From contig CANQYD010000003.1 in the NCBI GenBank assembly GCA_947627985.1, forward strand, positions 24,108-88,107: DNA of 64,000 nt, given 5' to 3'. A program made the position numbers and the translations under genes. This DNA comes from an uncultured Clostridia bacterium. GTDB lineage: Bacteria; Bacillota; Clostridia; Oscillospirales; Ruminococcaceae. Below the pieces are notes generated by a model. That model saw only the letters and a list, made by a program, of their open reading frames with translations, did no database searches and was not told the DNA's origin. Below are positions 532 to 59,964 of the stretch, piece by piece; the first letter of the stretch is position 1; each line of letters begins with the position of its first letter.

Positions 532-561
532 TTGACAATCCTCTTTCCGATGTGGTATAAT
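532..561 (+). promoter_or_regulatory. Sigma-70/SigA-type promoter of the Ile T-box operon
   Basis: TTGACA 532-537, 18-nt spacer with TG at 553-554, TATAAT 556-561. Confidence 0.75.
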
Positions 562-592
562 GCATAACAATCAACAAAATACCGTCGCCAAA

Positions 593-839
593 GGCTATGA
601 CAAAGACGGGACGCCGGAAAAATCGCCTCGAAGAGAGCGGAAGATTGCTGGGACTTCCGCAGGCGCTCGGCAGTCCGGATCACTTTCGAGCCGGAGCTCC
701 GAAATATTAAGGGCTCTCGCGTCCGCGCGTTACAGCGGAAGGCTTTTTATGAGCCGTTAAGAGGCAGGCTTTTTGTCTGCAATTTGAGTGGTACCGCGGG
801 ATATTCTCGTCTCAAAGAAATTCTTTGGGGCGATTTTTT
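593..839 (+). promoter_or_regulatory. T-box riboswitch leader, specifier read as AUC (Ile)
   Basis: K-turn 5' half GGCUAUGACAAAG (593-605) pairs with CUUUCGAGCC (683-692). AGAGAG bulge and distal hairpin present. T-box AATTTGAGTGGTACCGCGG at 781-799. Terminator hairpin plus T-run at 807-839. ATC-A at 679-682 sits in the specifier position. Confidence 0.85.
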
Positions 840-883
840 ATTATCTGCCCCGATCACTTCTAAAGCGTAAGGAGAAGAAGCAC

Positions 884-3157
884 ATGAGCAATCAGTCAGT
901 CAACCAGTTAGTCGAAGTCGCCGAGAGAATCCGCGAAATGCGCGAGATCATGGGCTGGACGACAGCCGAAATGGCGGAAAAGACCGAGGTCGCGGAGGAG
1001 GATTATCTTAAGTATGAGAGCGGTCAGGCAGACCTGCCGTTCACATTCATACATAAGTGCGCCCTCGCTTTTGAAATCGACCTCACCGACCTTCTGGAAG
1101 GTCGTTCGGCGGCAAGGCTTTCAAGCTACACCCTCACAAGAAAGGGTCAGGGTCAGGTCACGGCGCATGAAAAGGGCATCGATATCGCCAACTTAGCCCC
1201 CAAATTCCGCGATAAGATCGCCGAGCCGTATTGGGTAAAGTACGACTACATCGAGGCGCAGCAGAATGTCCCGATCCACCTCACCAAGCACTCCGGACAG
1301 GAATTCGACCTCATCATCTCCGGCAGCCTCAAGGTTCAGGTCGGCAGCCATATCGAGATTCTGAACGAGGGCGACTCAATCTACTACAACTCCTCCACAC
1401 CTCACGGAATGATCGCCGTCAACGGTCGCGACTGCGTGTTCGTAGCGGTCGTACTGCCGGGCGAGGACGACACCGAGGAGACCGCAAGGACCTCCCTGAT
1501 TCAGGCTAACCGTCCCAAGAAGGACACCCTCTTAGCCGAGCGCTTTGTCGATTTTATCGAAGATGAAAACGGCAAGCTCATCGACATGAAATTCCACGAC
1601 ACCGATACCTTCAACTTCGGCTTCGACTGCGTTGACGCGATCGCCGATAAATATCCCGATAAGCTCGCGATGATCCACGTCGACAAGCACAAGGTCGAGC
1701 GCCGGTTCACGTTTAAAGATATCAAACGCGCCTCAAATCAGACCGCCAATTACCTGCGTTCGCTCGGAATAAAGCGGGGCGACAAGGTCATGCTGGTCTT
1801 AAAAAGACATTATCAGTTCTGGTTCGCAATGGTGGCGCTGCATAAACTCGGCGCGATCGCGATCCCCGCGACAAATCAGCTCAAGCAGCACGATTTTGAA
1901 TACCGCTACGACAGAGCGGGCGTCTCGGCGATCCTCTGCACCGCCGACGGCGACGTCGCCGAAATTGCCGAAAAGGCGGCGGAAAATTGCCCGACCGTCA
2001 AGACCAAAATCCTCGTGGGCGGCGCAAGAGAGGGCTGGCGCGATTTCGACAACGAATATCAGCTCTATACCGGAAAATTTGAAAGACCCGAGGACTGCTC
2101 CGCAGGTTCCGAGCCGGCGCTCATGTTCTTCACCTCCGGCACCACCGGCAATCCGAAGATGGCTCAGCATGCGCATACATACGCCCTCGGTCACTTCGTC
2201 ACCGCCAAATACTGGCACTGCTGCGAGCGGGACGGACTTCACCTGACGATATCCGACACCGGCTGGGGCAAGTCGCTTTGGGGCAAGCTCTACGGTCAAT
2301 GGCTCTGCGAGGGCGCCGTGTTTGTCTATGATTTCGATAAATTCGACGCGGCGGATATTCTCCCGATGTTTGCAAAATATAATATCACAACATTCTGCGC
2401 GCCTCCGACCATGCTCAGAATGATGATAAAGGAAGATTTATCCATCTTTGACTTAAGCTCTATCCATCACATGACCACCGCCGGAGAAGCGCTCAACCCC
2501 GAGGTCGCGAAGCAGTTCAAGCAGGCGACGGGGCTTGAGATCATGGAGGGCTTCGGTCAGACCGAGACGACGCTCGTCATCGGCAACTTATACGGCGACA
2601 CCCCGAAATACGGCTCGATGGGCAAGGCTTCGCCGCAGTACGATATCGATATTTTGGACCCCGACGGAAACCCCGTGGCGAACGGCGAGGTCGGCGAGAT
2701 ATGCATAAAGACCTCCGACGCGGTCCCGCTCGGGCTGTTTAAGGAGTATTACCTCGACGAGAGGCTCACAAAAGAGGCTTGGCACGACGGATACTATCAC
2801 ACCGGCGACACCGCGTGGCGCGATGAGGACGGGTATTTCTGGTATGTTTCGAGGATCGACGACGTCATCAAGTCCTCGGGATACAGGATCGGTCCGTTTG
2901 AGATCGAGAGCGTCATCATGGAGCTGCCCTATGTGCTTGAATGCGGCGTTTCGGCTGTTCCCGACGAGATCAGGGGGCAGATAGTCAAGGCGAGCATAGT
3001 GCTCACCAAGGGTACCGTCGCCTCGGACGATCTCAAGAAGGAGATTCAGAACTACGTCAAGAGCCACACGGCGCCCTATAAATATCCGCGCGTGATCGTT
3101 TTCAGGGACGATTTGCCGAAGACGATCAGCGGGAAGATTCAGAGGAACAAACTCTGA
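884..3157 (+). CDS. Fusion protein: XRE-type HTH + cupin domain joined to AMP-forming medium/branched-chain acyl-CoA synthetase (MACS-like)
   Basis: ORF 788-3157. Start set to ATG 884 (AAGGAG upstream, after the T-box terminator). HTH (MGWTTAEMAEKTEV), cupin (HSGQEFDLIISG..HGM), then FFTSGTTGNPK, YHTGD, SSGYRIGPFEIE, PKTISGKIQR. Confidence 0.85.
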   Translation: MSNQSVNQLVEVAERIREMREIMGWTTAEMAEKTEVAEEDYLKYESGQADLPFTFIHKCALAFEIDLTDLLEGRSAARLSSYTLTRKGQGQVTAHEKGIDIANLAPKFRDKIAEPYWVKYDYIEAQQNVPIHLTKHSGQEFDLIISGSLKVQVGSHIEILNEGDSIYYNSSTPHGMIAVNGRDCVFVAVVLPGEDDTEETARTSLIQANRPKKDTLLAERFVDFIEDENGKLIDMKFHDTDTFNFGFDCVDAIADKYPDKLAMIHVDKHKVERRFTFKDIKRASNQTANYLRSLGIKRGDKVMLVLKRHYQFWFAMVALHKLGAIAIPATNQLKQHDFEYRYDRAGVSAILCTADGDVAEIAEKAAENCPTVKTKILVGGAREGWRDFDNEYQLYTGKFERPEDCSAGSEPALMFFTSGTTGNPKMAQHAHTYALGHFVTAKYWHCCERDGLHLTISDTGWGKSLWGKLYGQWLCEGAVFVYDFDKFDAADILPMFAKYNITTFCAPPTMLRMMIKEDLSIFDLSSIHHMTTAGEALNPEVAKQFKQATGLEIMEGFGQTETTLVIGNLYGDTPKYGSMGKASPQYDIDILDPDGNPVANGEVGEICIKTSDAVPLGLFKEYYLDERLTKEAWHDGYYHTGDTAWRDEDGYFWYVSRIDDVIKSSGYRIGPFEIESVIMELPYVLECGVSAVPDEIRGQIVKASIVLTKGTVASDDLKKEIQNYVKSHTAPYKYPRVIVFRDDLPKTISGKIQRNKL

Positions 3158-3740
3158 TAGAAGGCAGAATGTCAGAAGTCAGATGTCAGATTCTGCACTC
3201 AGCCTTAAACGAGACAAGTCAAAAAGGTTTTGCCCCGCTTTTCCTAAAAAAGCGGGCGGGGTCGAGGGGCAGAGCCCCTCGTCGCTCGTCGCAACGAGCG
3301 AAATCCCCAAGCAAGAGGACGGCGGAAGCCGTCGTCTTGCTTAAATCGATTCTAAGCGCAGGAGGGGGGAAATGAAAACAGTCCGGTGGACTGTTTTCAT
3401 CGGGGGAACCCTCGCCGGGGGTTCCCCCAACAAAAAACCGGCGACGAAGTCGCCCGGGAGCCGAGCGAAGCGAGGCTCATAAGCCCCTCCCCTCTCAGGG
3501 GAGGGGTTGGGGTGGGGTCAAAGCCGGAGGGGTGTGGGGAACCCTGCAAGGGTGCCCCACAGCTCGGAAAGGGGTGAGCAGAAGCTGGTTTTGTTGCCAA
3601 TCGCACTTCGCAATCAAAAACGTGGGATTGCTCGTGCTCTTGGACAAAACCCCGCAGGGGTTGTCCCCAATAGCAGCAGGCTTTTAAAAATTGAAAAGCC
3701 CAAATATCTCTCGCGCCGCTTTAAATCACTAAATCCACCT
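3158..3740 (+). repeat. Type I mosaic hairpin element (modules heptamer(rev)-E-C-B-F-A-D)
   Basis: E module 3211-3349, C 3372-3428, B 3440-3454, F 3484-3517, A 3522-3562, D 3578-3668. Each module recurs at 7.1, 12.4, 16.3(rev), 26.0 and 45.1 kb. Confidence 0.9.
3498..3517 (+). other. Canonical G-quadruplex motif
   Basis: GGGG A GGGG TT GGGG T GGGG; first two runs also pair with CCCCTCCCC at 3484-3492. Confidence 0.7.
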
Positions 3741-3812
3741 TTCCGCCCCTCCCACCTGCACCATTTTAAAACCACACCATTTTTGCCCCAACAAATCCCC
3801 CAAGGAGCCCCC

Positions 3813-4481
3813 ATGAATTCATTCAAACGCGTCTCACTTTTCGCCGGTCACTACGGCTCCGGCAAGACCAATTTGGCGGTCAACTACGCGATCGAACTGA
3901 AAAAACACTTCTACCGGGTCGTCATAGCCGACCTCGACATCGTCAACCCCTACTTCCGCACAAAGGATTCGGCTGAGCTCCTCGAAAAAGCCGGGATCGA
4001 GACCGTCTCCCCCGAGTTTGCAAACTCAAACGTCGATCTCCCGGCGCTCCCCTCGGAACTCTACGGCGTCGTCCAGAACCGCCATAGATACGCCGTTTTG
4101 GATATCGGCGGGGACGATCGCGGCGCATATGCCTTGGGGCGGTTTGCTCCCTATATTTTGGAAGAAAATGATTTTGAGATGATCTACGTCGCCAACTTCT
4201 GCCGACCGCTTACCCGCGAGCCCGAAGAGGCTTTAGAGGTCATGCGGGAGATAGAATCCGCGGGAGGCATCCCCTTTACGGCGATCGTCAACAACACAAA
4301 TCTTTCGCACCTCACCGATGAAAAAACCGTCGCCGAGGGTTATGCAAAAAGCAAAAGGCTTGCCGATATGAGCGGGCTTAAGCTTTTATTCACATCAGTC
4401 GAAAAGAGGCTTGCGGGAAATATCGACCTCGAAAACGTCTTCCCGATAGAGCTTCAGAGGAAATATTACGAAATTCTTTAA
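3813..4481 (+). CDS. P-loop NTPase (MinD/CooC-like SIMIBI class), function unknown
   Basis: ORF 3507-4481 trimmed to ATG 3813 (AAGGAG 6 nt upstream; upstream part lies in repeat). Walker A GHYGSGKTN. Confidence 0.75.
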   Translation: MNSFKRVSLFAGHYGSGKTNLAVNYAIELKKHFYRVVIADLDIVNPYFRTKDSAELLEKAGIETVSPEFANSNVDLPALPSELYGVVQNRHRYAVLDIGGDDRGAYALGRFAPYILEENDFEMIYVANFCRPLTREPEEALEVMREIESAGGIPFTAIVNNTNLSHLTDEKTVAEGYAKSKRLADMSGLKLLFTSVEKRLAGNIDLENVFPIELQRKYYEIL

Positions 4482-4494
4482 GGAGGAGAGAAAA

Positions 4495-4701
4495 ATGCCG
4501 AAGCTGACGTTCAACGTCGATCTTTGCAAGGGCTGCGGGCTTTGTGTCAGCGCATGTCCGAAAAAGCTCCTTGTGATCGCTAAGGACAAAATCAACAAAA
4601 AAGGTCATTCTCCCGCCGAGATCACCGATCAGTCACAGTGCATAGGCTGCGCGTTTTGCGCGACAATGTGCCCCGACTGCGTGATAACGGTAGAGAAGTA
4701 A
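4495..4701 (+). CDS. 2-oxoacid:ferredoxin oxidoreductase delta subunit (2x[4Fe-4S] ferredoxin)
   Basis: CKGCGLCVSACP and CIGCAFCATMCP motifs, 68 aa, first of a D-A-B-C gene order. Confidence 0.85.
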   Translation: MPKLTFNVDLCKGCGLCVSACPKKLLVIAKDKINKKGHSPAEITDQSQCIGCAFCATMCPDCVITVEK

Positions 4702-4714
4702 GGAGGTCGAAGGA

Positions 4715-5773
4715 ATGGCAAAGGTTTTAATGAAGGGCAACGAGGCTATCGCGGAAGCCGCGATAAGAGCGGGCTGCCGCCACTATTTCGGATACCCCAT
4801 CACCCCTCAGACGGAGGTTGCCGCATACATGGCGAAGAGAATGCCCAAAATAGGCGGCACTTTCCTGCAAGCCGAGAGCGAAATTTCGGCGATAAACATG
4901 GTCTACGGCGTATCGAGCGCGGGACTTCGGGTGATGACGAGCTCCTCAAGCCCCGGAGTATCTTTAAAGCAGGAGGGCATTTCCTATCTTGCCGGGTCCG
5001 ATCTTCCGGCGCTTATCGTCAACGTACAGAGAGGCGGACCGGGTCTTGGGGGAATCCAGCCCTCGCAGTCCGACTATTTCCAAGCGACCAAGGGAGGAGG
5101 ACACGGCGACTATCACCTCATCGTTTTAGCTCCCGCTTCTGTTCAGGAGATGGCTGATCTGACGGTGAAGGCGTTTGACCTTGCCGATAAGTACAGAATG
5201 CCCGCCATGCTCCTTGCCGACGGCACAATGGGACAGATGATGGAGCCCGTCGAGCTTCCCGAAGAGTGCGCGCACTCTGTAGATAAGCCCTGGGCTCTGA
5301 CGGGCACTCAGGGAAAGAGAGAGCATAACATCATAAACTCCCTCTATTTAGTGCCTGAACAGCTCGAGGAAAAGAATCTTGAAAGATATGAAAGATATAA
5401 GACAGTCGAGCGGGACGAGGTAATGTATGAGGAGTACATGCTCGATGACGCCGACGTCTGCGTAGTCGCGTTCGGGATCGCCGCAAGAGTATCCAAAAAC
5501 GCCATCACCGCGGCAAGGGCAAAGGGAATCAAAGCGGGTCTCATAAGACCCATCACCCTCTATCCCTTCCCGAAGGATATCATCAGAAAAACCGCAGAGA
5601 ATGTCAAGGGCTTTGTCTCGGTCGAGCTCTCGATGGGTCAGATGATCGACGACATCAGGCTCGCGGAAGAATGCAAAAAGCCCGTTACGCTCTGCTCAAG
5701 GGTGGGCGGAATGATCCCGTCGCCGGAAGAGGTCTTGAAGGCGATCGAAGATATGGAAGGAGGAAAATTCTGA
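4715..5773 (+). CDS. 2-oxoacid:ferredoxin oxidoreductase alpha subunit
   Basis: 352 aa, [16 protein letters not shown].. N-terminus typical of Kor/Vor/Por alpha; stop overlaps next start (TGATG). Confidence 0.85.
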
Positions 5774-6522
5774 TGGCTGTAGTATTCAAAAAGCCCGAGG
5801 CTCTCACCGACGCTCCTCTGCACTATTGCCCCGGCTGCACTCACGGAATAATCCACCGCCTCGTCGCCGAAGCTATCGACGATCTGGGCATTTTGGGAAG
5901 AACGGTAGGCGTGGCTCCCGTCGGCTGTGCGGTCATGGCTTATGACTATTTCTCCTGTGATATGGTCGAAGCGGCTCACGGTCGCGCGCCGGCTGTTGCC
6001 ACGGGACTTAAAAGGGCAAGACCCGAAAACATCGTCTTTACATATCAGGGCGATGGAGATCTCGCTTCCATCGGCATGGCAGAGACCGTTCATGCCGCGA
6101 CAAGGAACGAAAATATAACGGTAATATTTGTAAACAACGCTATCTACGGCATGACCGGCGGTCAAATGGCTCCTACCTCTCTTCCCGGTCAGGTGACTCA
6201 GACGTCGCCCTACGGCAGAGACGTCAAGACGGTCGGATACCCGATTAAAGTATGCGAACTGCTCTCGGCGCTCGACGCGCCCTATTATATCGAAAGAGTC
6301 GCGGTCAACAATGTCAAAAACGTCATGAACGCGAAAAAGGCGATCAGAAAGGCGTTTGAGAACCAGGTCGAGGGAAAGGGCTTCTCGCTTATCGAGGTCG
6401 TATCAAGCTGTCCCACAAACTGGGGAATGACCCCCGAAAAGGCTCTTAAATGGGTGGAGACGGACATGATCCCCTACTATCCTTTGGGAGTTTACCGCGA
6501 TAAATCAAAGGAGGCTGAGTGA
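5773..6522 (+). CDS. 2-oxoacid:ferredoxin oxidoreductase beta subunit (TPP-binding)
   Basis: ORF 5671-6522 trimmed to ATG 5773; [26 protein letters not shown] motif. Confidence 0.85.
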
Positions 6523-6523
6523 T

Positions 6524-7057
6524 ATGGCTTACACGCAGATACTCATCGCCGGATTCGGCGGTCAGGGAGTGCTCTTTGCGGGGAAAGTCCTTGCGTATAA
6601 AGGTCTTGAGGAGAACAAGCAGATATCATGGCTTCCGTCATACGGACCCGAGATGAGAGGCGGCACCGCAAACTGCTCGGTAATCGTTTCGGACACCCCG
6701 GTCGGCTCGCCTATCGTCTCCGAGCCGGACATACTGATCGTCATGAATCTGCCGTCGCTTGATAAGTACGAGAATGCGGCAGTCCCCGGGGCGAAGGTGT
6801 TCATCGACTCTTTCCTCATCGAGAGAAAAATCGAGCGCACCGACATTGAAGCGCACTACATTCCGGCTACGAAGATAGCGCGGGAGATGGGTATTCCGAC
6901 GCTTGCGAACATGGTTCTTTTGGGCAAGGTCATCAAGGAGACGGGGGTAGTCTCGATGGAAGGGCTAAAGGACGCGCTTGCGAAGACGGTTTCGGCGAAG
7001 CACCCCGAGCTTTTGGAGGCGAATCTGAAGGCGATACAGGCAGGTTATGATTATTAA
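6524..7057 (+). CDS. 2-oxoacid:ferredoxin oxidoreductase gamma subunit
   Basis: 177 aa, ILIAGFGGQGVLFAGK.. typical gamma N-terminus; starts 1 nt after beta stop. Confidence 0.85.
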   Translation: MAYTQILIAGFGGQGVLFAGKVLAYKGLEENKQISWLPSYGPEMRGGTANCSVIVSDTPVGSPIVSEPDILIVMNLPSLDKYENAAVPGAKVFIDSFLIERKIERTDIEAHYIPATKIAREMGIPTLANMVLLGKVIKETGVVSMEGLKDALAKTVSAKHPELLEANLKAIQAGYDY

Positions 7058-7320
7058 AAGGTTAATTAGCGCTTGAGCTGTGTAAGAGACAAGTCAAAAA
7101 GTTCGCCAGCCTTTCAAGGCTGCGGGGTCAAGGGGCGGCGCCCCTTGTCGCGCGTCGCAACGCGCGAAATCCCAAGCAAGAGGACGGCGTGAGCCGTCGT
7201 CTTGCGCATATCGGTCAAAAGAGGGCGACGAAGTCGCCCGAAGCCGGAGGGGTGTGGGGAACCCTGCAAGGGTGCCCCACAGAGCCGAGCGAAGCGAGGC
7301 TCAAAAAGCCCCTCCCCACC

Positions 7321-7340
7321 GGGGAGGGGTTGGGGAGGGG
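7321..7340 (+). other. Canonical G-quadruplex motif
   Basis: GGGG A GGGG TT GGGG A GGGG, preceded by CCCCTCCCC-ACC (7309-7320). Confidence 0.7.
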
Positions 7341-7528
7341 AAAGCCGGAGGGGGTTTGGGGGAACCCCGCAGGGGTGCCCCCACAGCCCGGAAAGGGGTA
7401 TGGGGAAAACCCGCAGGGGTTGTCCCCAATAGCAGGAGGCATTAAAAACTGCAAAGCCCAAATATCTCTCACATCGCTTTAAAGCATTACAGCCGAGCGA
7501 AGCGAGGCTCGAAAAGCCCCTCCCCACC

Positions 7529-7549
7529 GGGGAGGGGTTGGGGAGGGGG
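7529..7549 (+). other. Canonical G-quadruplex motif
   Basis: GGGG A GGGG TT GGGG A GGGGG, preceded by CCCCTCCCC-ACC. Confidence 0.7.
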
Positions 7550-7874
7550 AAAGCCGGAGGGGGGTTGGGGGGACCCCGCAGGGGTGCCCCACAGCACGGA
7601 AAGGGGTAAGCAGAAGCTGGTTTTGTACCTGCTCGACTGCCCTCGGCGGAAACGCTCGCCTCGGTTGTCTCGCAGACAAAACCCCGCGTCTGCGGGAAAA
7701 CCCCGCAGGGGTTGTCCCCAGCACAACTAATACGTTGTGCGAGACCTAAGACTAAAACATTTTTACAAGGTCAGGACGTGAAGCCGGAGGGGCGTGGGGA
7801 ACCCCGCAGGGGTGCCCCACAGTGCCGAGCGAAGCGAGGCACCCCCCATTCCCCCACTTTTCTTCAAATCCCTC

Positions 7875-7903
7875 TTGAATTTTCCGATTTAGCGTAGTAT
7901 AAT
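7875..7903 (+). promoter_or_regulatory. Promoter of ilvE
   Basis: TTGAAT 7875-7880, 17-nt spacer, TATAAT 7898-7903. Confidence 0.65.
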
Positions 7904-7941
7904 AATTTTATATTCCATCTTATTAAAAGGAGCAGATCAAA

Positions 7942-9009
7942 ATGCTTGACATCAAAATTCAGAAAACAACGGAGCCCAAGCCGATCCCGAAAAAGGGCGA
8001 ACCCTTAGGCTTCGGACACATCTTCACCGACCACATGTTCATCATGAACTACACCGAGGGCAAGGGCTGGCATGACCCGAGGATAGTCCCGTTCGGAGAC
8101 ATCACCCTGAGCCCCGCCGCAATGGTGCTGCACTACGGTCAGGAGATGTTCGAGGGCTTGAAAGCCTACAGAGGCGAGAGCGGCGACGTCTACCTCTTCC
8201 GCCCGGATATGAACGCTAAGCGCGCCAATAACTCCAACGACCGCCTTTGCATTCCCCATATCCCCGAGGAGGATTTTGTTCAGGCGGTCAAAGCCGTCGT
8301 CGATGTCGATCGCGACTGGGTGCCGTATGAGGAGGGGACTTCCCTCTATATCCGTCCGTTCGTGATCTCGACCGATCCCCACCTCGGCGTGGCGCCGTCC
8401 AAGACGTATCTGTTCATCATCATTCTCTCTCCGTCGGGAGCATATTATGAGAGCGGTCTTGCGCCGGTCGGAATCTGGATCGAGGACGAATATGTAAGAG
8501 CCGTCCGCGGAGGTATGGGTTATGCCAAGACCGGCGGTAACTATGCCGCGTCGCTGGCAGCGCAGGTAAAGGCGCATGACAGCGGCTATTCCCAGGCGCT
8601 TTGGCTCGACGGCGTTGAGAGAAAATATATTGAGGAAGTCGGATCGATGAACATCATGTTCAAGATATCCGGAAAAGTCGTCACCCCGATGCTCAACGGC
8701 TCGATCCTCCCGGGAATCACGAGAAATTCCATCATTCACCTCTGCAAGGACTGGGGATATGAGGTCGAGGAGAGGAGGATTTCGGTCGACGAGCTGATCG
8801 AAGCCGCAAGAAAAGGCACTTTGGAGGAGGTCTTCGGCACCGGAACCGCCGCGGTCGTCTCGCCTGTCGGAAAGCTCAGGTACAAGGACGAGGTAATCGA
8901 GATCGGCGGGGGCAAGATCGGTGAACTCACGCAGAAGCTCTATGACGAGCTGACGGGTATCCAGTGGGGCAAGAAGCCCGATCCCTACGGTTGGAGAGTC
9001 ACGGTCTGA
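7942..9009 (+). CDS. ilvE: Branched-chain amino acid aminotransferase
   Basis: 355 aa; [35 protein letters not shown] motifs of class IV BCAT. Confidence 0.9.
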
Positions 9010-9037: not shown

Positions 9038-9069
9038 CCGATCGCTTCTTTTGAGGCGGTCGGCTTTTT
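9038..9069 (+). terminator. Intrinsic terminator of ilvE
   Basis: CCGATCGC..GCGGTCGG stem followed by CTTTTT. Confidence 0.7.
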
Positions 9070-9957: not shown

Positions 9958-11364
9958 ATGAAAAAACTTATCGCAATCCTGCTAACGGCGGCCATGCTGC
10001 TTTCAGCTCTTCCGACGGCTGTTTTTGCCGACGGCGGCTTCGGTCTCAAAGCCGATTCCGACGGCACTGCCGTCACTCTATCGTGGGAAAAAGTCCCGGG
10101 CGCCGGAAGCTACACCGTCTATTACAACAGAAGCGGCGCAAAGCCCAAATCCCTCGGCAGCTTTAAATCGCTAAAACTCAAAGTCAACGGGCTCAAATCC
10201 GGCGTTTCCTATTCCTTTAAGGTCGTGTCGGATAACGGTTTCGAGACCGATGACCTCAGCATAACCCCCGAGACCGGCAAGAAAAAATCCGTCGAAAAAT
10301 ATCCCGAAAAAGAGGAATTTGAGACCGGAAAAGAAGCTGCGGAAGAATTCGGAGCCGGATACAACATCGGCAACGCCTTCGACTCCATCGATTCGAGCAA
10401 GCCGACCATGATGAACGAGCCGCTTGACCGCCTCGAGACCGCTTGGGGCAACCCCGTCATCAACGAGGATTACATCAAGGGGATCAAAAAAGCCGGCTTC
10501 GGCGCGGTCCGTCTTCCGGTGACATGGGGGAAAGCCGCAGATTCCGAGGGCAACGTCAGAAAGGACTACCTCGACCGCATTCAGGAGGTCGTCGATATGA
10601 TCCTTGAGGAGGATATGTACTGCATCATCAACGTCCACCACGACACCGGTTCCGACGGCTGGATCAGAGCTTCCGACAGCTCGTTCGGAAAGTACGGCGA
10701 CCGCTTCGGCAAAATCTGGGAACAGGTTGCCGAGAAGTTTAAGGATTACGGCGAAAAACTGCTCTTTGAGTGCATGAACGAGACCTTAAACGACAACGGC
10801 GAGTGGTATACCGATAAAAAAGCGGACTTCGACGCCATCAAAAAATGGCAGAAAGTTTTTGTGGATACCGTGCGCGCCTCGGGCGGCAACAATGAGCAGA
10901 GAAATCTGATCCTCTCGACCTACGCTGCTTCCTCGTCGTCGGGGATCATCAACGCCTTCGAGCTTCCCTCAAAAGTCGAGCCGGAGCACATCGTCTTAGA
11001 GGTCCACAACTACGATCCGCAGGGGTTCTCGTGGAGAGACGTCGGATACGACACCGAGAGGAGCAGCTGGGGCACCTCTCAGGATAAAAAACAGGTCGAC
11101 GACTTCCTCTACACCTTAAGTAAAAAGGCGGATTCGCTCGGCGTCGGAGCGATCGTCGGCGAATTCGGCTCGGTAGACAAGAGTAACGAATCAGAGCGCG
11201 CAAAGCAGGCGGAATATATGTATAAAAACGCCCATAAATACGGCGTCGCGGTATTCTGGTGGGACAACGGCTCGGCTAACGATTTCAGGATTTTTGACCG
11301 CACAAACGGCAAGGCGACGATGCCGAAGATCGTAAAAGCAATAGTAAACGCCGTAGATGATTAA
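9958..11364 (+). CDS. Secreted GH5 endoglucanase/cellulase with N-terminal Fn3-like domain
   Basis: Signal peptide MKKLIAILLTAAMLLSALPTAVFA; GYNIGNAFD, VRLPVTW, IINVHHD, ECMNE (acid/base), HNYDP, GEFG (nucleophile). Confidence 0.85.
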   Translation: MKKLIAILLTAAMLLSALPTAVFADGGFGLKADSDGTAVTLSWEKVPGAGSYTVYYNRSGAKPKSLGSFKSLKLKVNGLKSGVSYSFKVVSDNGFETDDLSITPETGKKKSVEKYPEKEEFETGKEAAEEFGAGYNIGNAFDSIDSSKPTMMNEPLDRLETAWGNPVINEDYIKGIKKAGFGAVRLPVTWGKAADSEGNVRKDYLDRIQEVVDMILEEDMYCIINVHHDTGSDGWIRASDSSFGKYGDRFGKIWEQVAEKFKDYGEKLLFECMNETLNDNGEWYTDKKADFDAIKKWQKVFVDTVRASGGNNEQRNLILSTYAASSSSGIINAFELPSKVEPEHIVLEVHNYDPQGFSWRDVGYDTERSSWGTSQDKKQVDDFLYTLSKKADSLGVGAIVGEFGSVDKSNESERAKQAEYMYKNAHKYGVAVFWWDNGSANDFRIFDRTNGKATMPKIVKAIVNAVDD

Positions 11365-11500: not shown

Positions 11501-12211
11501 ATGACTAAGAAGATTCTTGCTGCCATCGTCGCAGTGATGATGGTACTCGCACTCAGCGTCACCGCTTTTGCCGCGTCTATCGACCTCGTCGATGGCTGCG
11601 TTGCCAACAATGACGGCGAATTCGTCGTTGCCGACGGTTCCGTAACTTCCAGCGGCACCAGCTTCAGCGTTAAGCTTGCCGAGGCTGTTCCGGACGGAGA
11701 CACCGTTACCGTTCACATCAAGGGCTCTTCCGACGGCGACTTCAGAGTATGGCTTGCCGCAGGTACTGCCACCTTCTCCAACGAGCCTCTTTGGAAGGCT
11801 TCCGAGCAGGGCGTCACCACTCCCGGCGAGTTCGACGTCACCTTTGATCTTACCGCTTTCCCGAAGGACGGAACCGGCACTGCCGCAGACTGCATCATGT
11901 TCAAGGCTCCTTCCTACGACTCCAAGCTCTCCAACTTCAAGCTGACCTTCCTCTCCATCAATGGCGACGAGGCTCCTGCTGCCGAGGCTGAGGCTGAGGA
12001 AGCTCCCGCCGAGGCTGAGGCTGAAGCCGAGCCCGAGGAAGCTCCCGCTGAGGCTGCCGAGGAGACCACTGCTGAGGCTCCCGCAGAGGCTGAGACCACT
12101 GCCGAGGCTCCTGCCGAGACCGAGACCAAGGCTCCTGCCACCGGTCTTGCCCTCGCCGTAGTTCCCGCAGTCATGGCTCTTGCTGCCGTTGCAGTTTCCA
12201 AGAAGCACTGA
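11501..12211 (+). CDS. Small secreted surface protein, paralog 1 (signal peptide, beta-rich domain, EAPAE linker, PxTG-type C-terminal sorting signal)
   Basis: MTKKILAAIVAVMMVLALSVTAFA ... ETKAPATGLALAVVPAVMALAAVAVSKKH. Confidence 0.85.
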   Translation: MTKKILAAIVAVMMVLALSVTAFAASIDLVDGCVANNDGEFVVADGSVTSSGTSFSVKLAEAVPDGDTVTVHIKGSSDGDFRVWLAAGTATFSNEPLWKASEQGVTTPGEFDVTFDLTAFPKDGTGTAADCIMFKAPSYDSKLSNFKLTFLSINGDEAPAAEAEAEEAPAEAEAEAEPEEAPAEAAEETTAEAPAEAETTAEAPAETETKAPATGLALAVVPAVMALAAVAVSKKH

Positions 12212-12257
12212 TTTTAACGACAGGCGATAACAGAAAATAAGTCGTAAAAAACTTCCG

Positions 12258-12292
12258 GAAAGGACCCCCGCGCAGGGGGTTCTTTCTTTTTA
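12258..12292 (+). terminator. Intrinsic terminator of paralog 1
   Basis: 12-bp stem GAAAGGACCCCC / GGGGGTTCTTTC, loop GCGCA, then TTTTT. Confidence 0.8.
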
Positions 12293-12839
12293 GGGGTTAG
12301 GGGATAGATGATTAGAGGATAGAGATATGCGACAGGGCTTGCGGGACAAAGCGGGGTCTGAGGGGAGGGGGAGGACAGGATCTTCGTCTTCCCCGAGTTG
12401 AGACAAGGCAAAAAGGTTTTGCCCCGCTTTTCCTCAAAAAGCGGGCGGGGTCGAGGGGCGGCGCCCCTCGTCGCCCGTCGCAACGGGCGAAATACTTTAA
12501 GCAAGAGGACGCTGTAAAGCGTCGTCTTGCTTTTATCGTTCAAAAGAGGGCGACGAAGTCGCCCGAGAGCCGGAGGGGTGTCAGCAGAAGCTGGTTTTGT
12601 AACCAATCGCACTTCGCAATCGTAAACGATTGATTGCTCGTGCTCTTGGACAAAACCCCGCGTCTGCGGGAACCCCGCAGGGGTGCCCCACAGCCGGAGG
12701 GAGTATGGGGGAACCCTTGCAAAGGGATCCCCCAACAAAAACCGGCGACGAAGTCGCCCGGAGCCGCGCGAAGCGAGGCTCGAGCCCCCTCTCCCTTGGG
12801 AGAGGGGGTTGGGGGTGAGGGTGAAAGCCCCTCCCCACC

Positions 12840-12859
12840 GGGGAGGGGCTGGGGAGGGG
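12840..12859 (+). other. Canonical G-quadruplex motif
   Basis: GGGG A GGGG CT GGGG A GGGG after CCCCTCCCC-ACC. Confidence 0.7.
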
Positions 12860-13102
12860 AAAGCCCGGAAAGGGGGCTTGGGGAAAACCCTGCAAGGGTT
12901 GTCCCCAACATAGTAGCAGCGTAGAAGGACTTATATAACGTCTTAAATATAAATATAGTAGTCCCCGCCCTCTCCTACCCCTTGTTAAAAGGTATTCGTT
13001 CATTTTCCCGCCGGAAAATGAACTCATGCTATTTTAAGCAGACCCCCACCCCCATCGAAATCTGTGCAGACTTATAGTAGAGCGGAGCCCCCTCCCCTAA
13101 AA

Positions 13103-13128
13103 GGGGGGAGGGGGCTTGGGGGTGGGGG
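13103..13128 (+). other. G-quadruplex motif
   Basis: GGGGGG A GGGGG CTT GGGGG T GGGGG after CCCCCTCCCC-TAAAA. Confidence 0.7.
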
Positions 13129-13506
13129 TAAAAGCCGGAGGGGTGTGGGGAACCCCGCAGGGGTGCCCCACTGAGCCCCCTCTCCCTTGGGAGAGGGGCA
13201 AGAGCCGGGGGGCGTGGGGAACCCCGTAGGGGTGCCCCACAGTTGTTGAGCAGAGAGAAAAGATAGTAGCAGAAGATTACCTTTAAGTTTAGGAAAGGGG
13301 GGCTTAGGGGGAAAACCCTTTCCAAAAGGGCTTTTCCCCTCATAAGTCAGAGCCGAATTTTAAAAAATCAGAGCTAACAATTGCCGATTTAAATCGTTAA
13401 ATCTACTACGACGCTCCACTTTGCCCGCATACCCCATTTGAATAGTCCCCCATAATCCCCACCCTCACAATAAATCAAAAAATCCACCCCAAAATGCAAA
13501 AAGCTA

Positions 13507-13535
13507 TTGACAACCCGGAAAATCTGTATTATAAT
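13507..13535 (+). promoter_or_regulatory. Promoter of paralog 2
   Basis: TTGACA 13507-13512, 17-nt spacer, TATAAT 13530-13535. Confidence 0.75.
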
Positions 13536-13588
13536 AACAGTGTAGCTTGCGGGAAACCGCACTAACAAATGAAAACGGAGGATTTTTT

Positions 13589-14128
13589 ATGAAAAAGATT
13601 TTAGCTGTTATCGTAGCCGTCATGATGGCTATGACTCTCGTTATGAGCGTGTCAGCCGACGAGTATGCAGGCGAGGTCCCTGCCGGTTCCGAGTGGTGGT
13701 ATGAGGTCATGATCAAGGACATCATTCCGCTTGAGAACCTTGAGGGTCACTCTTCCATCACTTTCGGCTGCGACTGCAACTTCGCTGCCGGTTATAACGA
13801 AGGCGACACTTGGATTCAGAGAACCGACCTGAGCACCGAGCCCATCACCATCGATCTTACTACCGCTACCATCAACGACGATTCCAAGATCATGCTCCAG
13901 AAGGGCTCTGCCGGTGCTTTCACCATCACCTACACTCTTGATGACGGCGCTGCCGCTCCTGCCGAAGAGACCCCTGCCGAGGCTCCTGCTGAGACCGAAG
14001 CTGAGGCTCCCGCCGCTGAGGAGACTCCCGCCGAGACTGAGACCAAGGCTCCTGCTACCGGTCTTGCCCTCGCTGTAGTTCCCGCCGTCGTGGCTCTTGC
14101 CGCTGTCGCGGTTTCCAAGAAGCACTAA
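13589..14128 (+). CDS. Small secreted surface protein, paralog 2
   Basis: ORF 13547 trimmed to ATG 13589 (GGAGGA upstream); MKKILAVIVAVMMAM.. ; C-terminus ETKAPATGLALAVVPAVVALAAVAVSKKH. Confidence 0.85.
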   Translation: MKKILAVIVAVMMAMTLVMSVSADEYAGEVPAGSEWWYEVMIKDIIPLENLEGHSSITFGCDCNFAAGYNEGDTWIQRTDLSTEPITIDLTTATINDDSKIMLQKGSAGAFTITYTLDDGAAAPAEETPAEAPAETEAEAPAAEETPAETETKAPATGLALAVVPAVVALAAVAVSKKH

Positions 14129-14140
14129 TCAAAAACCGAG

Positions 14141-14170
14141 GAAAGCTCCCGCCCGGGGGCTTTCTTTTTT
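14141..14170 (+). terminator. Intrinsic terminator of paralog 2
   Basis: GAAAGC..GCTTTC stem with GC-rich interior followed by TTTTTT. Confidence 0.75.
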
Positions 14171-14214
14171 ATGATAATCGGTCAAAACTTTGATACCGAA
14201 AATTCAAAAATCTA

Positions 14215-14243
14215 TTGACTTTCTTTTATAGATGTATTATAAT
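14215..14243 (+). promoter_or_regulatory. Promoter of paralog 3
   Basis: TTGACT 14215-14220, 17-nt spacer, TATAAT 14238-14243. Confidence 0.75.
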
Positions 14244-14297
14244 GTTTTCATAGATGCGGTACGCCGCACTAAAAGATGAAATATGGAGGAAATTACC

Positions 14298-14951
14298 ATG
14301 AAGAAAATTCTTGCAATTGCCATAGCCGTCGTTATGGTTATGGCGCTCGCAGTCACCGCTTCCGCAGAGACTATTTACGAGTACACTTCCCCGGTCAAGG
14401 TCGCTTTCGGCTGGACCACCCTTATCCAGAACGGCGACGCCAACGCCACCGACTTCTTTAAGGCGATCGGCACCGAGGGCGCTGTCATCGAGATGATCGC
14501 TACCGACCTTGTCGACGGCGACAGACAGGCTGAGGTCGTTGACGCTTGGTTCCAGATCTGCACTCAGGACACCGTAGGTTGGACTGAGGCTGGCGGTCTC
14601 AAGACCGAGGGTATCGGCGAGACCTACGGCTTCACCGATGAAGGTTATGTCATCACCATTCCCGCCGCAGCTTTCAACGAGATGGTCGTAAACAGCGGCG
14701 TTGATCCCGCCAACCTCTCCATCATTCTCAACGCCGGCGGTTCTTGGGCTAAGTCCGCTTCCAAGATCATTCTGAGAGTTTCCGTTCCCGACGAAGCCGC
14801 CGAGGCTCCCGCAGAAGAGACTCCCGCCGAGGAAGCTCCCGAAGAAGCTCCCGCCGAGACCGAGACCAAGGCTCCTTCCACCGGTATCGCGCTTGCTGTA
14901 ATTCCCGCCGTCATGGCTCTTGCAGCTGTTGCCGTTTCCAAGAAGCACTAA
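14298..14951 (+). CDS. Small secreted surface protein, paralog 3
   Basis: ORF 14283 trimmed to ATG 14298 (GGAGGA upstream); MKKILAIAIAVVMVMALAVTASA; C-terminus ETKAPSTGIALAVIPAVMALAAVAVSKKH. Confidence 0.85.
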   Translation: MKKILAIAIAVVMVMALAVTASAETIYEYTSPVKVAFGWTTLIQNGDANATDFFKAIGTEGAVIEMIATDLVDGDRQAEVVDAWFQICTQDTVGWTEAGGLKTEGIGETYGFTDEGYVITIPAAAFNEMVVNSGVDPANLSIILNAGGSWAKSASKIILRVSVPDEAAEAPAEETPAEEAPEEAPAETETKAPSTGIALAVIPAVMALAAVAVSKKH

Positions 14952-14989
14952 GCGAATAGCCGCGGATAATATCCAAAAAATGCAAATTT

Positions 14990-15022
14990 CGGGGAAGATT
15001 TCGGTCTTCCCCGTGATTTTTA
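14990..15022 (+). terminator. Intrinsic terminator of paralog 3
   Basis: CGGGGAAGA / TCTTCCCCG stem then TGATTTTT. Confidence 0.75.
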
Positions 15023-15125
15023 TCCATGATCTTCCAAACTTTCTTCCTGATAATGCCGAGATTTCTTCATTTTGCATAAATCGATGATAAAATTTTGGCT
15101 AAACTGCTATAAATCATGAAAACAC

Positions 15126-15154
15126 TTGACTTTGCGGGCAAAATGTGAGAAAAT
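15126..15154 (+). promoter_or_regulatory. Probable promoter of paralog 4
   Basis: TTGACT 15126-15131, 17-nt spacer, GAAAAT 15149-15154 (weaker -10). Confidence 0.5.
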
Positions 15155-15212
15155 ACAATTATGGTTACGCTGACAAATAGCGCGACTAATTAAAGTTATG
15201 GAGGAATATTTT

Positions 15213-15938
15213 ATGAAGAAAATTCTTGCGATCGTCGTCGCTATGATGATGGTCATGGCTCTTTCGGTAAGCATTTTCGCTGACGATATCGACGTATCCG
15301 GCATGGACGTTGCTTTCGAGTGGACCGAAGGCAAGGCTGCACATGACTGGTGGACTGCCAAGGACGTTTTCAGCGCTGACGATTACGCCAAGTTTGTCGA
15401 GGCTCTCGGCATGGACGGCGCTGTCGTTGAAGTCGCCGGCAACAACCCCGGTGCAGGCGGAGCGATGACCAACTTCAACTTTGACTGGGACGGTCACGGC
15501 ATTCTGATGGCCGGCGACGGTCAGTATCCTATGGGCGATTTCGATTGCTTCGCTTCCATGGATCAGCTCAGAGCTGACGGCAAGGTTCCGGATACTATCG
15601 ACAACGTAATTCTTCAGTTCAACATCTATCAGGATGAGACTGACGTAACCGTTTCCAAGGTTGCCGTTTATGTTCCTGCCGGTGCTGCTCCCGAGGCTGA
15701 GGCTGAGGCTGAGGAAACTCCCGCCGAGACCGAGGAAGCTCCTGCTGAGGCTGAAGCTCCCGCCGAAGAGACCCCTGCCGAGGCTCCTGCTGAGACCGAG
15801 GCTGAGGCTCCCGCCGCTGAGGAGACCCCTGCTGAGGCTCCCGCTGCCGAGACCAAGGCTCCTGCCACCGGTTTAGCTCTCGCGGTTGTTCCCGCTGTCA
15901 TGGCTCTTGCCGCTGTTGCGGTTTCCAAGAAGCACTAA
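15213..15938 (+). CDS. Small secreted surface protein, paralog 4
   Basis: ORF 15198 trimmed to ATG 15213; MKKILAIVVAMMMVMALSVSIFA; C-terminus ETKAPATGLALAVVPAVMALAAVAVSKKH. Confidence 0.85.
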   Translation: MKKILAIVVAMMMVMALSVSIFADDIDVSGMDVAFEWTEGKAAHDWWTAKDVFSADDYAKFVEALGMDGAVVEVAGNNPGAGGAMTNFNFDWDGHGILMAGDGQYPMGDFDCFASMDQLRADGKVPDTIDNVILQFNIYQDETDVTVSKVAVYVPAGAAPEAEAEAEETPAETEEAPAEAEAPAEETPAEAPAETEAEAPAAEETPAEAPAAETKAPATGLALAVVPAVMALAAVAVSKKH

Positions 15939-15985: not shown

Positions 15986-16145
15986 TGATTTTTTGTGATT
16001 TGAGGCGCCCGGGGGTGCCTCTTTTTTTGGGGGAATCTTTCAAGATGGCAAAAGGAGGGGATTTTGCCTCGCTTCGCTCGGCAAACCCAAGGGGAGAACC
16101 CTTTATAAAAGGGTTCTCCCCTATAACCCCTCTCCTAAAATCTTT

Positions 16146-16166
16146 CCCCCTCCCCAACCCCTCCCC
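16146..16166 (-). other. G-quadruplex motif on minus strand
   Basis: Plus strand reads CCCCC T CCCC AA CCCC T CCCC. Confidence 0.65.
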
Positions 16167-16310
16167 GGCGGGGAGGGGCTTTTCGCCTCGCTTCGCTCGG
16201 CTCCCGGGCGACTTCGTCGCCGGTTTTTTGTTGGGGGAACCCCCGGCGAGGGTTCCCCCGATGAAAACAGTCCCCCGGACTGTTTTCATTTCCCCCTCCT
16301 GCGCTAATTA

Positions 16311-25904: not shown

Positions 25905-26320
25905 AAGTTAGAGAAGTAGAGGTTAGAGACTGCTGGCATCCTTCAGAGAGATAAGTCGAAAAGGTTTTGCCCCGCTTTTCCTCAAAAAGCGGGCGAGAGT
26001 CCAGAGGCGAGGAGCCTCTGGTCGCCCGTCGCAACGGGCGAAATCCCAAAGCAAGAGGACGGCGTAAGCCGTCGTCTTGCTTTTTATTATTCAAAAAGCG
26101 CAGGAGGGAGCATAAGCTGGTTTTGTTGCTGCTCGCACTTCGCAATCGTAAACGATTGATTGCTCGTGCTTGCAGACAAAACCCCGCGTATGCGGATGAA
26201 AACAGTCCGGTGGACTGTTTTCATCGGGGGAACCCTCGCCGGGGGTTCCCCCAACAAAAAACCGGCGACGAAGTCGCCCGAAGCCGAGCGAAGCGAGGCT
26301 CAAATGCCCCCTCTCCCTTA
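25902..26320 (+). repeat. Type I mosaic element (heptamer(rev)-E-D-C-B, truncated in F)
   Basis: E 25947-26090, D 26108-26195, C 26198-26255, B 26264-26278, GAGCGAAGCGAG 26286; ends in GCCCCCTCTCCCTTAG. Confidence 0.9.
26051..26086 (+). terminator. E4 hairpin = intrinsic terminator downstream of mscS
   Basis: GCAAGAGGACGGC-GTAA-GCCGTCGTCTTGC followed by TTTTT. Confidence 0.65.
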
Positions 26321-45029: not shown

Positions 45030-45622
45030 AGGGGAAGACAAGGCAAGTTTAGGATCAAGCCCTTTTTAAAGGGCTTGCGGAATCCAAGGGCGGAGCCCTT
45101 GGTCGCGCTCCGCAGAGCGCGAAATCCCTGCAAAAAGGACAGCGAAAGCTGTCCTTTTTGCCTTTATCGTTCAAATGAGGGCGACGAAGTCGCCCGAAGC
45201 CGGAGGGGTGTCAGCAGAAGCTGGTTTTGTAGCCAATCGCACTTCGCAATCGTAAACGACTGATTGCTCGTGCTCTTGGACAAAACCCCGCGTCTGCGGG
45301 AACCGTGCAACGGTGCCCCACAGCCGGAAAAGGGGTTTGGGGAAAACCCGGCACGGGTTGTCCCCAACATAGTAGTGGTATCGAACAGTAATTCCCTCCC
45401 GCCCGACCCTTAGTTAAAAGGTATTCGTTCATTTTCCTGCCGGAAAATGAACTCATGTTATTTGAAGCAGACCCCCGCCCCCGTCGAAGTCTGTACAGAC
45501 TTATAGTCGAGCGGAGCCCCCTCCCCCTAAAAGGGGGAGGGGGTCTGGGGGTGGGGGTGAGAGCCGGAGGGTCGTGGGGAACCGTGCAACGGTGCCCCAC
45601 AGCCGAGCGCAGCGAGGCACCC
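45030..45622 (+). repeat. Type I mosaic element (E-B-D-A-G-F-A)
   Basis: E 45036-45168 (divergent stems, same fold), B 45180-45194, D 45205-45300, A 45302-45321, G 45405-45475, F/G4 45518-45557, A 45560-45601. Confidence 0.9.
45533..45557 (+). other. G-quadruplex motif
   Basis: GGGGG A GGGGG TCT GGGGG T GGGGG preceded by CCCCCTCCCCC-TAAAA. Confidence 0.7.
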
Positions 45623-51836: not shown

Positions 51837-51854
51837 TGTATCACTAATATTAAA

Positions 51855-52112
51855 GGCGATGACGAAGAAGGCAAAAGTCGGGTCGATTCAAAGAGAGCCG
51901 GTGGTTGGTGAAAACCGGCAGAAGCCCGCTGTGAGCCCCTCGCTTCCGAGCCGGCTGTCTGAACATTTAAAGTAGGATTGCCCGTGACTGCTGCGTTAAT
52001 GCATAGGAATTGTTGGATTCCAAGAGCGGCGGATTTTTCCGCAATTTGAGTGGTACCGCGAGTGTATGATATCTGCACCCGTCTCAAAGAAATCTTTGGG
52101 GCGGATTTTTTA
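51855..52112 (+). promoter_or_regulatory. T-box riboswitch leader, specifier read as CUC (Leu)
   Basis: GGCGAUGACGAAG (51855-51867) pairs with CUUCCGAGCC (51943-51952). AGAGAG plus distal loop GGTTGGTGAAAACC. CTC-G at 51939-51942. T-box AATTTGAGTGGTACCGCG at 52043-52060. Terminator plus T-run at 52078-52112. Confidence 0.85.
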
Positions 52113-52185
52113 TACCCGCTGCCGGGGATTTCCGAAGGGATGACAATTTTCCTAAAAAATCACTTTTTAAAGGAGAAGAAAGAAA

Positions 52186-53850: not shown

Positions 53851-53863
53851 AGGAGAAATCGGC

Positions 53864-55123: not shown

Positions 55124-55124
55124 G

Positions 55125-55607: not shown

Positions 55608-55616
55608 GGGAAAAAG

Positions 55617-56684: not shown

Positions 56685-56707
56685 AATAAAGAAGAAGGAC
56701 TGATAAA

Positions 56708-58384: not shown

Positions 58385-59964
<1,580 letters not shown>

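Follow-up and report, generated by a model that had tools for sequence, protein, structure and literature searches.

Cellulolytic Clostridia of the rumen and gut use, and often need, branched short-chain acids, which are fed as "isoacids" in ruminant nutrition. According to work attributed to Allison and co-workers, rumen and gut anaerobes reportedly carboxylate such acids reductively to isoleucine, valine and leucine; the biochemistry of this pathway has been known since the 1960s, but its genes and their control are poorly defined. Which genes carry it, and what signal turns them on, is the question raised by a locus on contig CANQYD010000003.1 (assembly GCA_947627985.1) of an uncultured Clostridia bacterium, of which a stretch of 64,000 nt, called here the window, was analysed. 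Near the start of the window a T-box leader, with a specifier codon for isoleucine, precedes the gene of an acyl-CoA synthetase (P1), and the genes of a P-loop NTPase (P2), a four-subunit 2-oxoacid:ferredoxin oxidoreductase and the aminotransferase IlvE follow. A sequence-only reading had proposed that tRNA-Ile controls a route from 2-methylbutyrate to isoleucine through these enzymes. We consider it likely that an isoleucine T-box switches the salvage of 2-methylbutyrate to isoleucine, and the comparison of related loci lends strong support to a salvage that carboxylates branched acids reductively on the way to isoleucine and valine. Conserved gene order, specifier codons, a synthetase pocket like that of a 2-methylbutyrate-preferring enzyme and a VorB-type alpha subunit all speak for the proposed route, but for the signal to reach the oxidoreductase in the window, read-through of a 620-nt insertion is needed.

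Relatives were gathered by a scan of species-representative genomes with P1 as the query, and the best 80 of more than 500 matches form the comparison set of 80 related loci. These best 80 relatives of P1 (75-90% identity) are all from gut metagenome-assembled genomes, labelled Clostridia, Oscillospiraceae, Acutalibacteraceae, "Candidatus Faeciplasma" and similar, with rabbit, ruminants, birds and humans as hosts. An identical P1 is present on metagenome contigs of one study. Gene order was read from tblastn searches of seven window proteins against the 80 loci, and counts of arrangements use the 55 loci whose downstream sequence extends over 7.5 kb or more. For the counts of specifiers, 135 leaders were aligned with MAFFT and the specifier columns counted; a simple regular expression mis-called five leaders.

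Leaders and specifier codons

The leader in front of P1 matches the Rfam T-box model RF00230 at positions 588-817 of the forward strand over the full model (1-219); its score of 99.3 bits (E = 1e-20) exceeds the gathering score, which is 93 bits. The terminator stem (807-833, 12 bp, dG = −15.2 kcal/mol, z = −5.6) is formed by CGUCUCAAAGA-AAU-UCUUUGGGGCG and is followed by a U-run to about position 845. The antiterminator reads UUUGAG-UGGUACC-GCGGGA...UCUCGU-CUCAAA, with UGGUACC as the bulge, and the conserved T-box sequence AAUUUGAGUGGUACCGCG lies at 782-799. Since the 3′ strand of the antiterminator is also the 5′ strand of the terminator (common segment CGUCUCAAAG), the two predicted structures are mutually exclusive. 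Stem I, as aligned to the model, shows AUC-A, the K-turn GC-UAUGA...GAGC and an AGAGA bulge; its S-turn departs from the canonical consensus (AGUA/GAA). On the 3′ side of the specifier loop the model consensus GAAa-uuc-a is aligned to CCGG-AUC-A, so that AUC is the specifier codon and A682 the base after it. The sequence-only reading had described a complete leader at 593-839, which is within a few bases of the extent found here, and had placed AUC-A at 679-682, proposing an alignment to the Rfam model as a check; the covariance model gives the same placement. Its further claim that the leader of leuA reads CUC-G at the aligned position is borne out by a second T-box in the window (51850-52089, 102.1 bits). 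A regular-expression match at 46459 on the reverse strand was considered as a third T-box of the window and rejected as not a T-box, and no tRNA genes were found in the window. Judged by its sequence and predicted folding, the leader before P1 is a transcription-attenuating T-box keyed to tRNA-Ile, the binding of the tRNA being predicted.

In most related genomes the counterpart of P1 (ACS1) is accompanied by a paralog (ACS2; 61-65% identity to P1, helix-turn-helix [HTH]-cupin module included), and a T-box motif is found before both synthetase copies. The specifier is ATC (Ile) in 74 of 74 ACS1 leaders and GTA (Val) in 51 of 51 ACS2 leaders. GTA is also read in one ilvE leader, at a locus where ACS2 is lost (L072), and as a positive control the T-boxes of the same leader family that precede leuA-type genes carry CTC (Leu; six leaders). 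The register of the specifier is fixed by several observations taken together. The codon is invariant in the Ile leaders while its flanks vary, the base before the codon (−1 register) differs among leaders, and a shift by +1 would turn the codon of the Val leaders into UAG or UAA. A 4-bp helix just 3′ of the position after the codon covaries with its 5′ partner across 110 leaders, with GAAG:CUUC in 98, GGAG:CUCC in three, GAAA paired with UUUC or UUUU in four, and AAAG:CUUU in the window. Finally, the structure-aware Rfam alignment of the two leaders of locus L011 gives AUC-A (91.9 bits) and GUA-G (73.6 bits, E = 2.5e-15); both are under the gathering score and were recovered in E-value mode. 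In 73 of 73 ACS1 leaders and 49 of 49 ACS2 leaders the T-box motif is preceded, at a distance of about 245 nt, by a near-consensus promoter. One synthetase is thus labelled for isoleucine and the other for valine, and the specifiers would thereby mark the oxidoreductase and the aminotransferase that the two share as branched-chain enzymes.

No third synthetase keyed to leucine, as would be expected for isovalerate, was seen within the 80 loci. We also noticed that at two loci (L059, 4600-6255; L016, 19650-21344) Leu (CUC) T-boxes precede a short LeuA-like synthase (455-462 aa) adjoining the Ile/Val block, a layout which suggests a larger T-box-organised branched-chain neighbourhood.

Gene order and the oxidoreductase

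The genes form a tight operon in 50 of the 55 loci, with median gaps of 8-24 nt within the block. The most frequent order is ACS1-ACS2-P2-delta-alpha-beta-gamma-ilvE (32 loci), and in seven loci ilvE stands directly after ACS2 (ACS1-ACS2-ilvE-P2-delta-alpha-beta-gamma). The order of the window, ACS1-P2-delta-alpha-beta-gamma-ilvE, is seen in 10 loci and ACS1-ilvE-P2-delta-alpha-beta-gamma in one, and the remaining five have ACS1 alone. The gap between ACS1 and ACS2 has a median of 390 nt, and in most two-synthetase genomes the −35 box of the Val unit lies about 0-40 nt from the ACS1 stop codon. This placement of promoters and T-boxes divides the block into two units, promoter-T-box(Ile)-ACS1 and promoter-T-box(Val)-ACS2-P2-delta-alpha-beta-gamma-ilvE. 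At L072 (9560-12830), where ACS2 is absent, a Val (GUA-C) T-box stands directly before ilvE-P2-delta-alpha-beta-gamma, and ACS1 has a consensus promoter and a leader with no recognisable T-box. The loci with ACS1 alone (L038, 9995-13824; also L046, L049, L075 and L083) continue into unrelated genes (nucleoside hydrolase, dUTPase).

The features of the window are collected in Table 1. The order of genes after the synthetase given by the sequence-only reading (P-loop NTPase, delta-alpha-beta-gamma, ilvE with a promoter of its own) agrees with the domain families, the coordinates and the promoter site found here.

Table 1. Features of the T-box(Ile)-synthetase-oxidoreductase-ilvE locus (positions in the window)
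Feature	Position	Strand	Basis
Promoter, TTGACA / 18-nt spacer / TG-extended TATAAT	532..561	+	12/12 match
T-box leader: Stem I, Stem III, antiterminator, terminator and U-run	588..845	+	RF00230 and folding
Specifier codon AUC (Ile), then A682	679..681	+	covariance-model alignment
P1, HTH_19 and Cupin_2 fused to MACS-type AMP-forming acyl-CoA synthetase, 757 aa	884..3157	+	Pfam, NCBIfam, PDB match
Spacer of dispersed REP-like GC-rich palindromes, P1-P2	3158..3812		alignment with L008, L009, L010
Hairpin shaped like a terminator (13-bp stem between A-tract and U-tract), one of the dispersed repeat units	3372..3400	+	folding
P2, SIMIBI-class P-loop NTPase, 222 aa, Walker A GHYGSGKT	3813..4481	+	fold and motif
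Oxidoreductase delta, 2 x [4Fe-4S] ferredoxin, 68 aa	4495..4701	+	Fer4; two CxxCxxCxxxCP motifs
Oxidoreductase alpha, VorB subfamily, 352 aa	4715..5773	+	POR_N and PFOR_II; NF005507
Oxidoreductase beta, thiamine-diphosphate-binding, 249 aa	5773..6522	+	TPP_enzyme_C; start overlaps alpha stop codon
Oxidoreductase gamma, 177 aa	6524..7057	+	POR domain
Second REP-like spacer, gamma-ilvE	7058..7941		repeats; median gap in relatives 24 nt
ilvE promoter, TTGAAT / 17-nt spacer / TATAAT	7875..7903	+	10/12 match
ilvE, branched-chain amino-acid aminotransferase (class IV, type II)	7942..9009	+	TIGR01123, NF009897
Intrinsic terminator after ilvE	9038..9063	+	11-bp stem, then T-run

The four-subunit VOR-type set is complete (POR_N, PFOR_II, TPP_enzyme_C, POR and Fer4 domains are all present), and the alpha subunit scores 555 bits with the VorB model NF005507, above its cut-off of 399 bits. 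IlvE passes both equivalog cut-offs, with 413.5 bits against 250 for TIGR01123 and 501.4 bits against 307 for NF009897. One may ask whether the oxidoreductase serves branched-chain fermentation, or acts on 2-oxoglutarate or pyruvate, and stands beside the T-box by chance. The beta and delta subunits do score best with 2-oxoglutarate-type models, all of these matches being under the cut-offs, and in the window 655 nt separate P1 from the oxidoreductase genes. This is nevertheless very improbable in our view: gaps of 8-24 nt are kept across dozens of species, two-synthetase genomes transcribe the oxidoreductase genes directly from the Val T-box unit, the Val T-box of L072 stands immediately before the same set, the alpha subunit is above the VorB cut-off, and induction of a catabolic enzyme by starvation for its own substrate would be illogical. 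A biosynthetic direction, carboxylation of a branched acyl-CoA, is instead suggested by the AMP-forming ligase, whose reaction is effectively irreversible, together with induction by starvation for the product.

P2 is kept in position in 57 loci, always alongside the oxidoreductase genes. Its AlphaFold2 model (pLDDT 80) has the signal recognition particle (SRP)/FtsY and ArsA proteins as best Foldseek matches (probability 1.0, TM 0.55-0.64), and the Pfam match to CbiA is under the cut-off. No NCBIfam match and no sequence relative in the PDB were found for P2, and the fold search yields the class only; on its modelled fold P2 is a SIMIBI-class protein that belongs to no named family.

Substrate of the synthetase

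P1 consists of HTH_19 (residues 14-73), Cupin_2 (135-189), AMP-binding (253-623) and AMP-binding_C (673-751) domains. Both parts of the catalytic region are clear in Pfam (232 and 76 bits, respectively), and HTH_19 (36.9 bits, cut-off 30.2) and Cupin_2 (38.2 bits, cut-off 27.2) give P1 the XRE-cupin layout. The sequence-only reading had called the product of the first gene a MACS-like synthetase, which was right as to the catalytic class and missed the N-terminal HTH_19 and Cupin_2 domains (residues 14-189). Its statement that enzymes of this type may prefer 2-methylbutyrate applies to the closest solved relative of P1. This relative is Methanosarcina acetivorans Macs (MacsMa; PDB: 3ETC), which matches residues 234-755 with 621 bits, followed at a distance by 4-hydroxybutyrate-CoA ligase (353 bits), ACSM2A (326 bits) and acetyl-CoA synthetases (at most 255 bits).

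MacsMa prefers 2-methylbutyrate and completes the CoA/thioester step only with this acid (PMC10455477). In medium-chain enzymes a glycine replaces the tryptophan that gates the acetate pocket of Acs, and Trp259 substitutes for it (PMC10455477). A closer inspection of P1 aligned with Escherichia coli Acs revealed Gly558 at the position of W414, Ala533 at V386 and Gly462 at V310, and W444 of the AKYW motif is the equivalent of MacsMa Trp259. Presumably V310 and V386 of Acs line its acetate pocket. The alignment with 3ETC shows the same residues in P1 at all pocket positions examined. With both AMP-binding domains, Gly558 and W444, P1 is of the MacsMa-like MACS type, and homology and pocket residues together point to a putative 2-methylbutyrate-CoA ligase. 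Comparison of ACS1 (n = 81) with ACS2 (n = 45) identified 22 positions fixed differently, among them position 462, which is Gly in ACS1 and Ala in ACS2. The alanine would make the pocket of ACS2 smaller by one methyl group, and this difference fits a C5 substrate for ACS1 and a C4 substrate for ACS2.

The same regulation could also serve a shorter acid. Anaerobes are known to carboxylate propionate reductively on the way to isoleucine; P1 would then activate propionate, the oxidoreductase would be a 2-oxobutyrate synthase, and IlvBN, IlvC, IlvD and IlvE would finish isoleucine. The genes ilvB, ilvC and ilvD are in the window and an ilvA-like gene lies next door. MacsMa is able to adenylate propionate, but it does so without completing the CoA step (PMC10455477). 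Moreover, P1 is identical to MacsMa at all pocket positions examined, its pocket is larger than that of the Val-linked ACS2, the opposite of what C3 against C4 substrates would lead one to expect, and the operon keeps ilvE and not ilvBNCD. We therefore regard propionate as an unlikely substrate and 2-methylbutyrate as the probable one.

The ilvA-like threonine dehydratase (PALP and ACT domains) just mentioned is seen at L001 (6751-8943), just upstream of the window start, with NUDIX and RidA genes and divergent from the T-box promoter. This ilvA/RidA neighbourhood was seen only in contigs of the source organism itself and not in the other loci.

A different use of the product of P1 has to be weighed as well, namely the supply of branched acyl-CoA as primer for anteiso and iso fatty acids in the manner of Staphylococcus aureus MbcS, with the amino-acid route secondary or absent and isoleucine shortage as the signal for a lost isoleucine-derived primer. 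MbcS (NF047394) is the top NCBIfam model for P1, T-box(Ile)-ACS1 stands alone in five of the 55 loci, and MbcS is described as a short-chain synthetase whose substrates, 2-methylbutyrate and isobutyrate, are activated for use in lipid synthesis (PMC10026030). The score of P1 (438.9 bits) is far under the equivalog cut-off of 850 bits, and P1 is not assigned to MbcS, which has no HTH-cupin module. In 50 of the 55 loci the oxidoreductase and ilvE are in the operon, where they would be needless for making primers from free acids, and running them oxidatively under starvation for isoleucine or valine would use up the scarce amino acid. A purely or mainly lipid role is for these reasons quite unlikely, although both uses of P1 are compatible and may coexist.

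The sequence of the N-terminal module finds no match in the PDB; its relatives (35-45% identity) include many proteins of about 185 aa that stand alone, and clusters with the fusion are few. The HTH domain of P1 has a net charge of −9 over 68 residues (−1 to −10 in relatives), and alignments of 77 and 49 promoters show no conserved palindrome of the kind expected for an operator. DNA binding by the module is doubtful on both counts, and a DNA-binding trigger enzyme was not adopted as our explanation of P1. The first 230 residues (window 884-1573) may represent an XRE-cupin subfamily without the usual DNA binding, and a part as sensor or allosteric element is possible from the sequence. Since 15 of the 22 positions that distinguish ACS1 from ACS2 fall within these first 230 residues, the module may sense supply or end product. 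One could imagine a two-input device in which the T-box reports demand, the HTH-cupin module reports supply or end product, and P2, a partner that depends on nucleotide and acts in assembly or in energy coupling, lets the oxidoreductase run uphill towards CO2 fixation. We regard this combination, the role of P2 included, as speculative and rather unlikely. To our knowledge, VOR systems and acyl-CoA synthetases are not known to have any of the three.

Reach of the signal in this genome and relation to known systems

The proposed sequence of events would begin with uncharged tRNA-Ile, whose acceptor end would steady the antiterminator so that the polymerase passes the terminator at 807-833 into P1. 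P1 would convert exogenous 2-methylbutyrate to 2-methylbutyryl-CoA, the VorB-type oxidoreductase would combine this with CO2 and reduced ferredoxin to give 2-oxo-3-methylvalerate, and IlvE, whose family assignment is observed, would transaminate the latter to isoleucine. In most relatives the Val unit (GUA T-box, ACS2) would likewise lead from isobutyrate to valine. The lineage of the window would have lost the Val unit, which would bring the Ile T-box directly upstream of the shared genes, and repetitive extragenic palindrome (REP)-like insertions would then have loosened the operon in this genome, with ilvE gaining its own promoter.

The two spacers of the window measure 655 nt (P1-P2) and 884 nt (gamma-ilvE). 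In L008, L009 and L010 ACS1 and P2 are only about 45 nt apart, with a ribosome-binding site inside this gap, and gamma is separated from ilvE by about 20 nt; relative to these close relatives the P1-P2 spacer is, by alignment, an insertion of about 620 nt. Palindromic units recur between genes across the window, GCCGAGCGAAGCGAGGC ten times and GGGGAACCCYGCARGGGTGCCCC nine times, where none would be expected by chance. The hairpin in the first spacer (dG = −22.3 kcal/mol, z = −3.6) belongs to a terminator-shaped repeat unit, AAACAGTCC-NNN-GGACTGTTT, with copies at 3376, 16265 and 26200, and could act as a transcription terminator. That this spacer is filled with repeats and has no promoter had been stated by the sequence-only reading; both spacers are indeed insertions of a dispersed REP-like family, and a search of 3158-3812 on the forward strand found no sigma-70-like site, even when only 8 of 12 matches were required. 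Searches of both spacers for a T-box remnant or another RNA family gave none, one sub-threshold small RNA (sRNA) match being treated as chance. Elsewhere in the system promoters are close to consensus, and with none in 3158-3812 transcription of the oxidoreductase genes most likely comes from the T-box unit by read-through.

REP-like units were noted at 1-500, 3158-3812, 7058-7900, 12660-13240, 16060-16290, 26200-26300, 34234 and 45576-45618. Metagenome assemblies of the source organism end right after P1, and the REP-like units are the probable cause.

Several points weigh against the scheme as a whole. The insertion of about 620 nt with its −22 kcal/mol hairpin stands between P1 and P2, and ilvE has a separate promoter, so that the isoleucine signal may stop at the synthetase; in this genome sequence supports T-box control for the synthetase only. 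The beta, gamma and delta subunits are under every curated NCBIfam cut-off, with best names that are generic or of 2-oxoglutarate type, and the substrate range of the oxidoreductase is therefore read from the alpha subunit and the regulatory context. In 19 of the 74 Ile leaders a C takes the place of the purine after the specifier. Five of the 55 loci have T-box(Ile)-ACS1 without an oxidoreductase nearby, and the scheme leaves the roles of the HTH-cupin module and P2 unexplained.

The canonical route is present in the window as well. A T-box(Leu), with CUC as specifier, heads a leuA-leuC-(leuD)-leuB-ilvB-(ilvN)-ilvC-ilvD cluster at 51850-61808. Given this route, the branched-acid route would be a salvage option and not the sole source of these amino acids. 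Elsewhere in the window (11501-15938), near a GH5 cellulase (9958-11364), four tandem paralogous small secreted proteins of 236, 193, 222 and 246 aa end in ...ETKAP(A/S)TG, a hydrophobic stretch and SKKH, which looks like a sortase-type signal of an xPxTG variant.

Compared with the branched-chain T-boxes of Firmicutes (ilv-leu, ileS, and leuA of the window), the system shares the RNA family, the attenuation mechanism, a specifier that names the amino acid, and biosynthetic genes downstream. It differs in what is controlled: not canonical ilv enzymes, tRNA synthetases or transporters, but an acyl-CoA synthetase and, directly in relatives, a ferredoxin oxidoreductase. P1 resembles MacsMa over the whole catalytic region, including the positions of MacsMa Trp259 and of Acs V310 (Gly), V386 (Ala) and W414 (Gly), but has about 230 extra N-terminal residues, is bacterial and T-box-controlled, and its substrate is predicted. 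MbcS feeds lipid synthesis. With the pathway ascribed to Allison and co-workers and the methanogen VOR (VorABC) the system shares the proposed chemistry from acid through acyl-CoA and 2-oxoacid to amino acid, as well as the VorB subfamily of the alpha subunit. The earlier work was physiological and biochemical, whereas here a gene set, an operon, paralog-specific synthetases and a tRNA-sensing control are added. RNA family, enzyme classes and chemistry were each known before; their combination was not found described in the literature searched. No paper was found there that links T-boxes to acyl-CoA synthetase or VOR genes, though the Vitreschak 2008 survey may hold a prior description; the 2008 T-box survey PMC2494555 mentions neither CoA, ferredoxin nor oxidoreductase.

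The undescribed combination consists of a T-box over an acid-activating synthetase and a ferredoxin oxidoreductase, paralogs matched by specifier, an HTH-cupin fusion and a conserved NTPase. It would bring enzymes of acid activation and CO2 fixation into the T-box regulon, with codons that tag the paralogs, AUC for the Ile-linked copy (proposed substrate 2-methylbutyrate) and GUA for the Val-linked copy (proposed substrate isobutyrate), and it draws attention to the HTH-cupin fusion and to the SIMIBI-class P2 as two conserved, uncharacterised components. For a pathway described so far by its biochemistry, the locus offers a concrete gene set with several hundred matches among species-level genomes. 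Genome-based predictions of amino-acid auxotrophy overlook the branched-acid route, as in the gut amino-acid reconstruction PMC9026213, where it is unmentioned.

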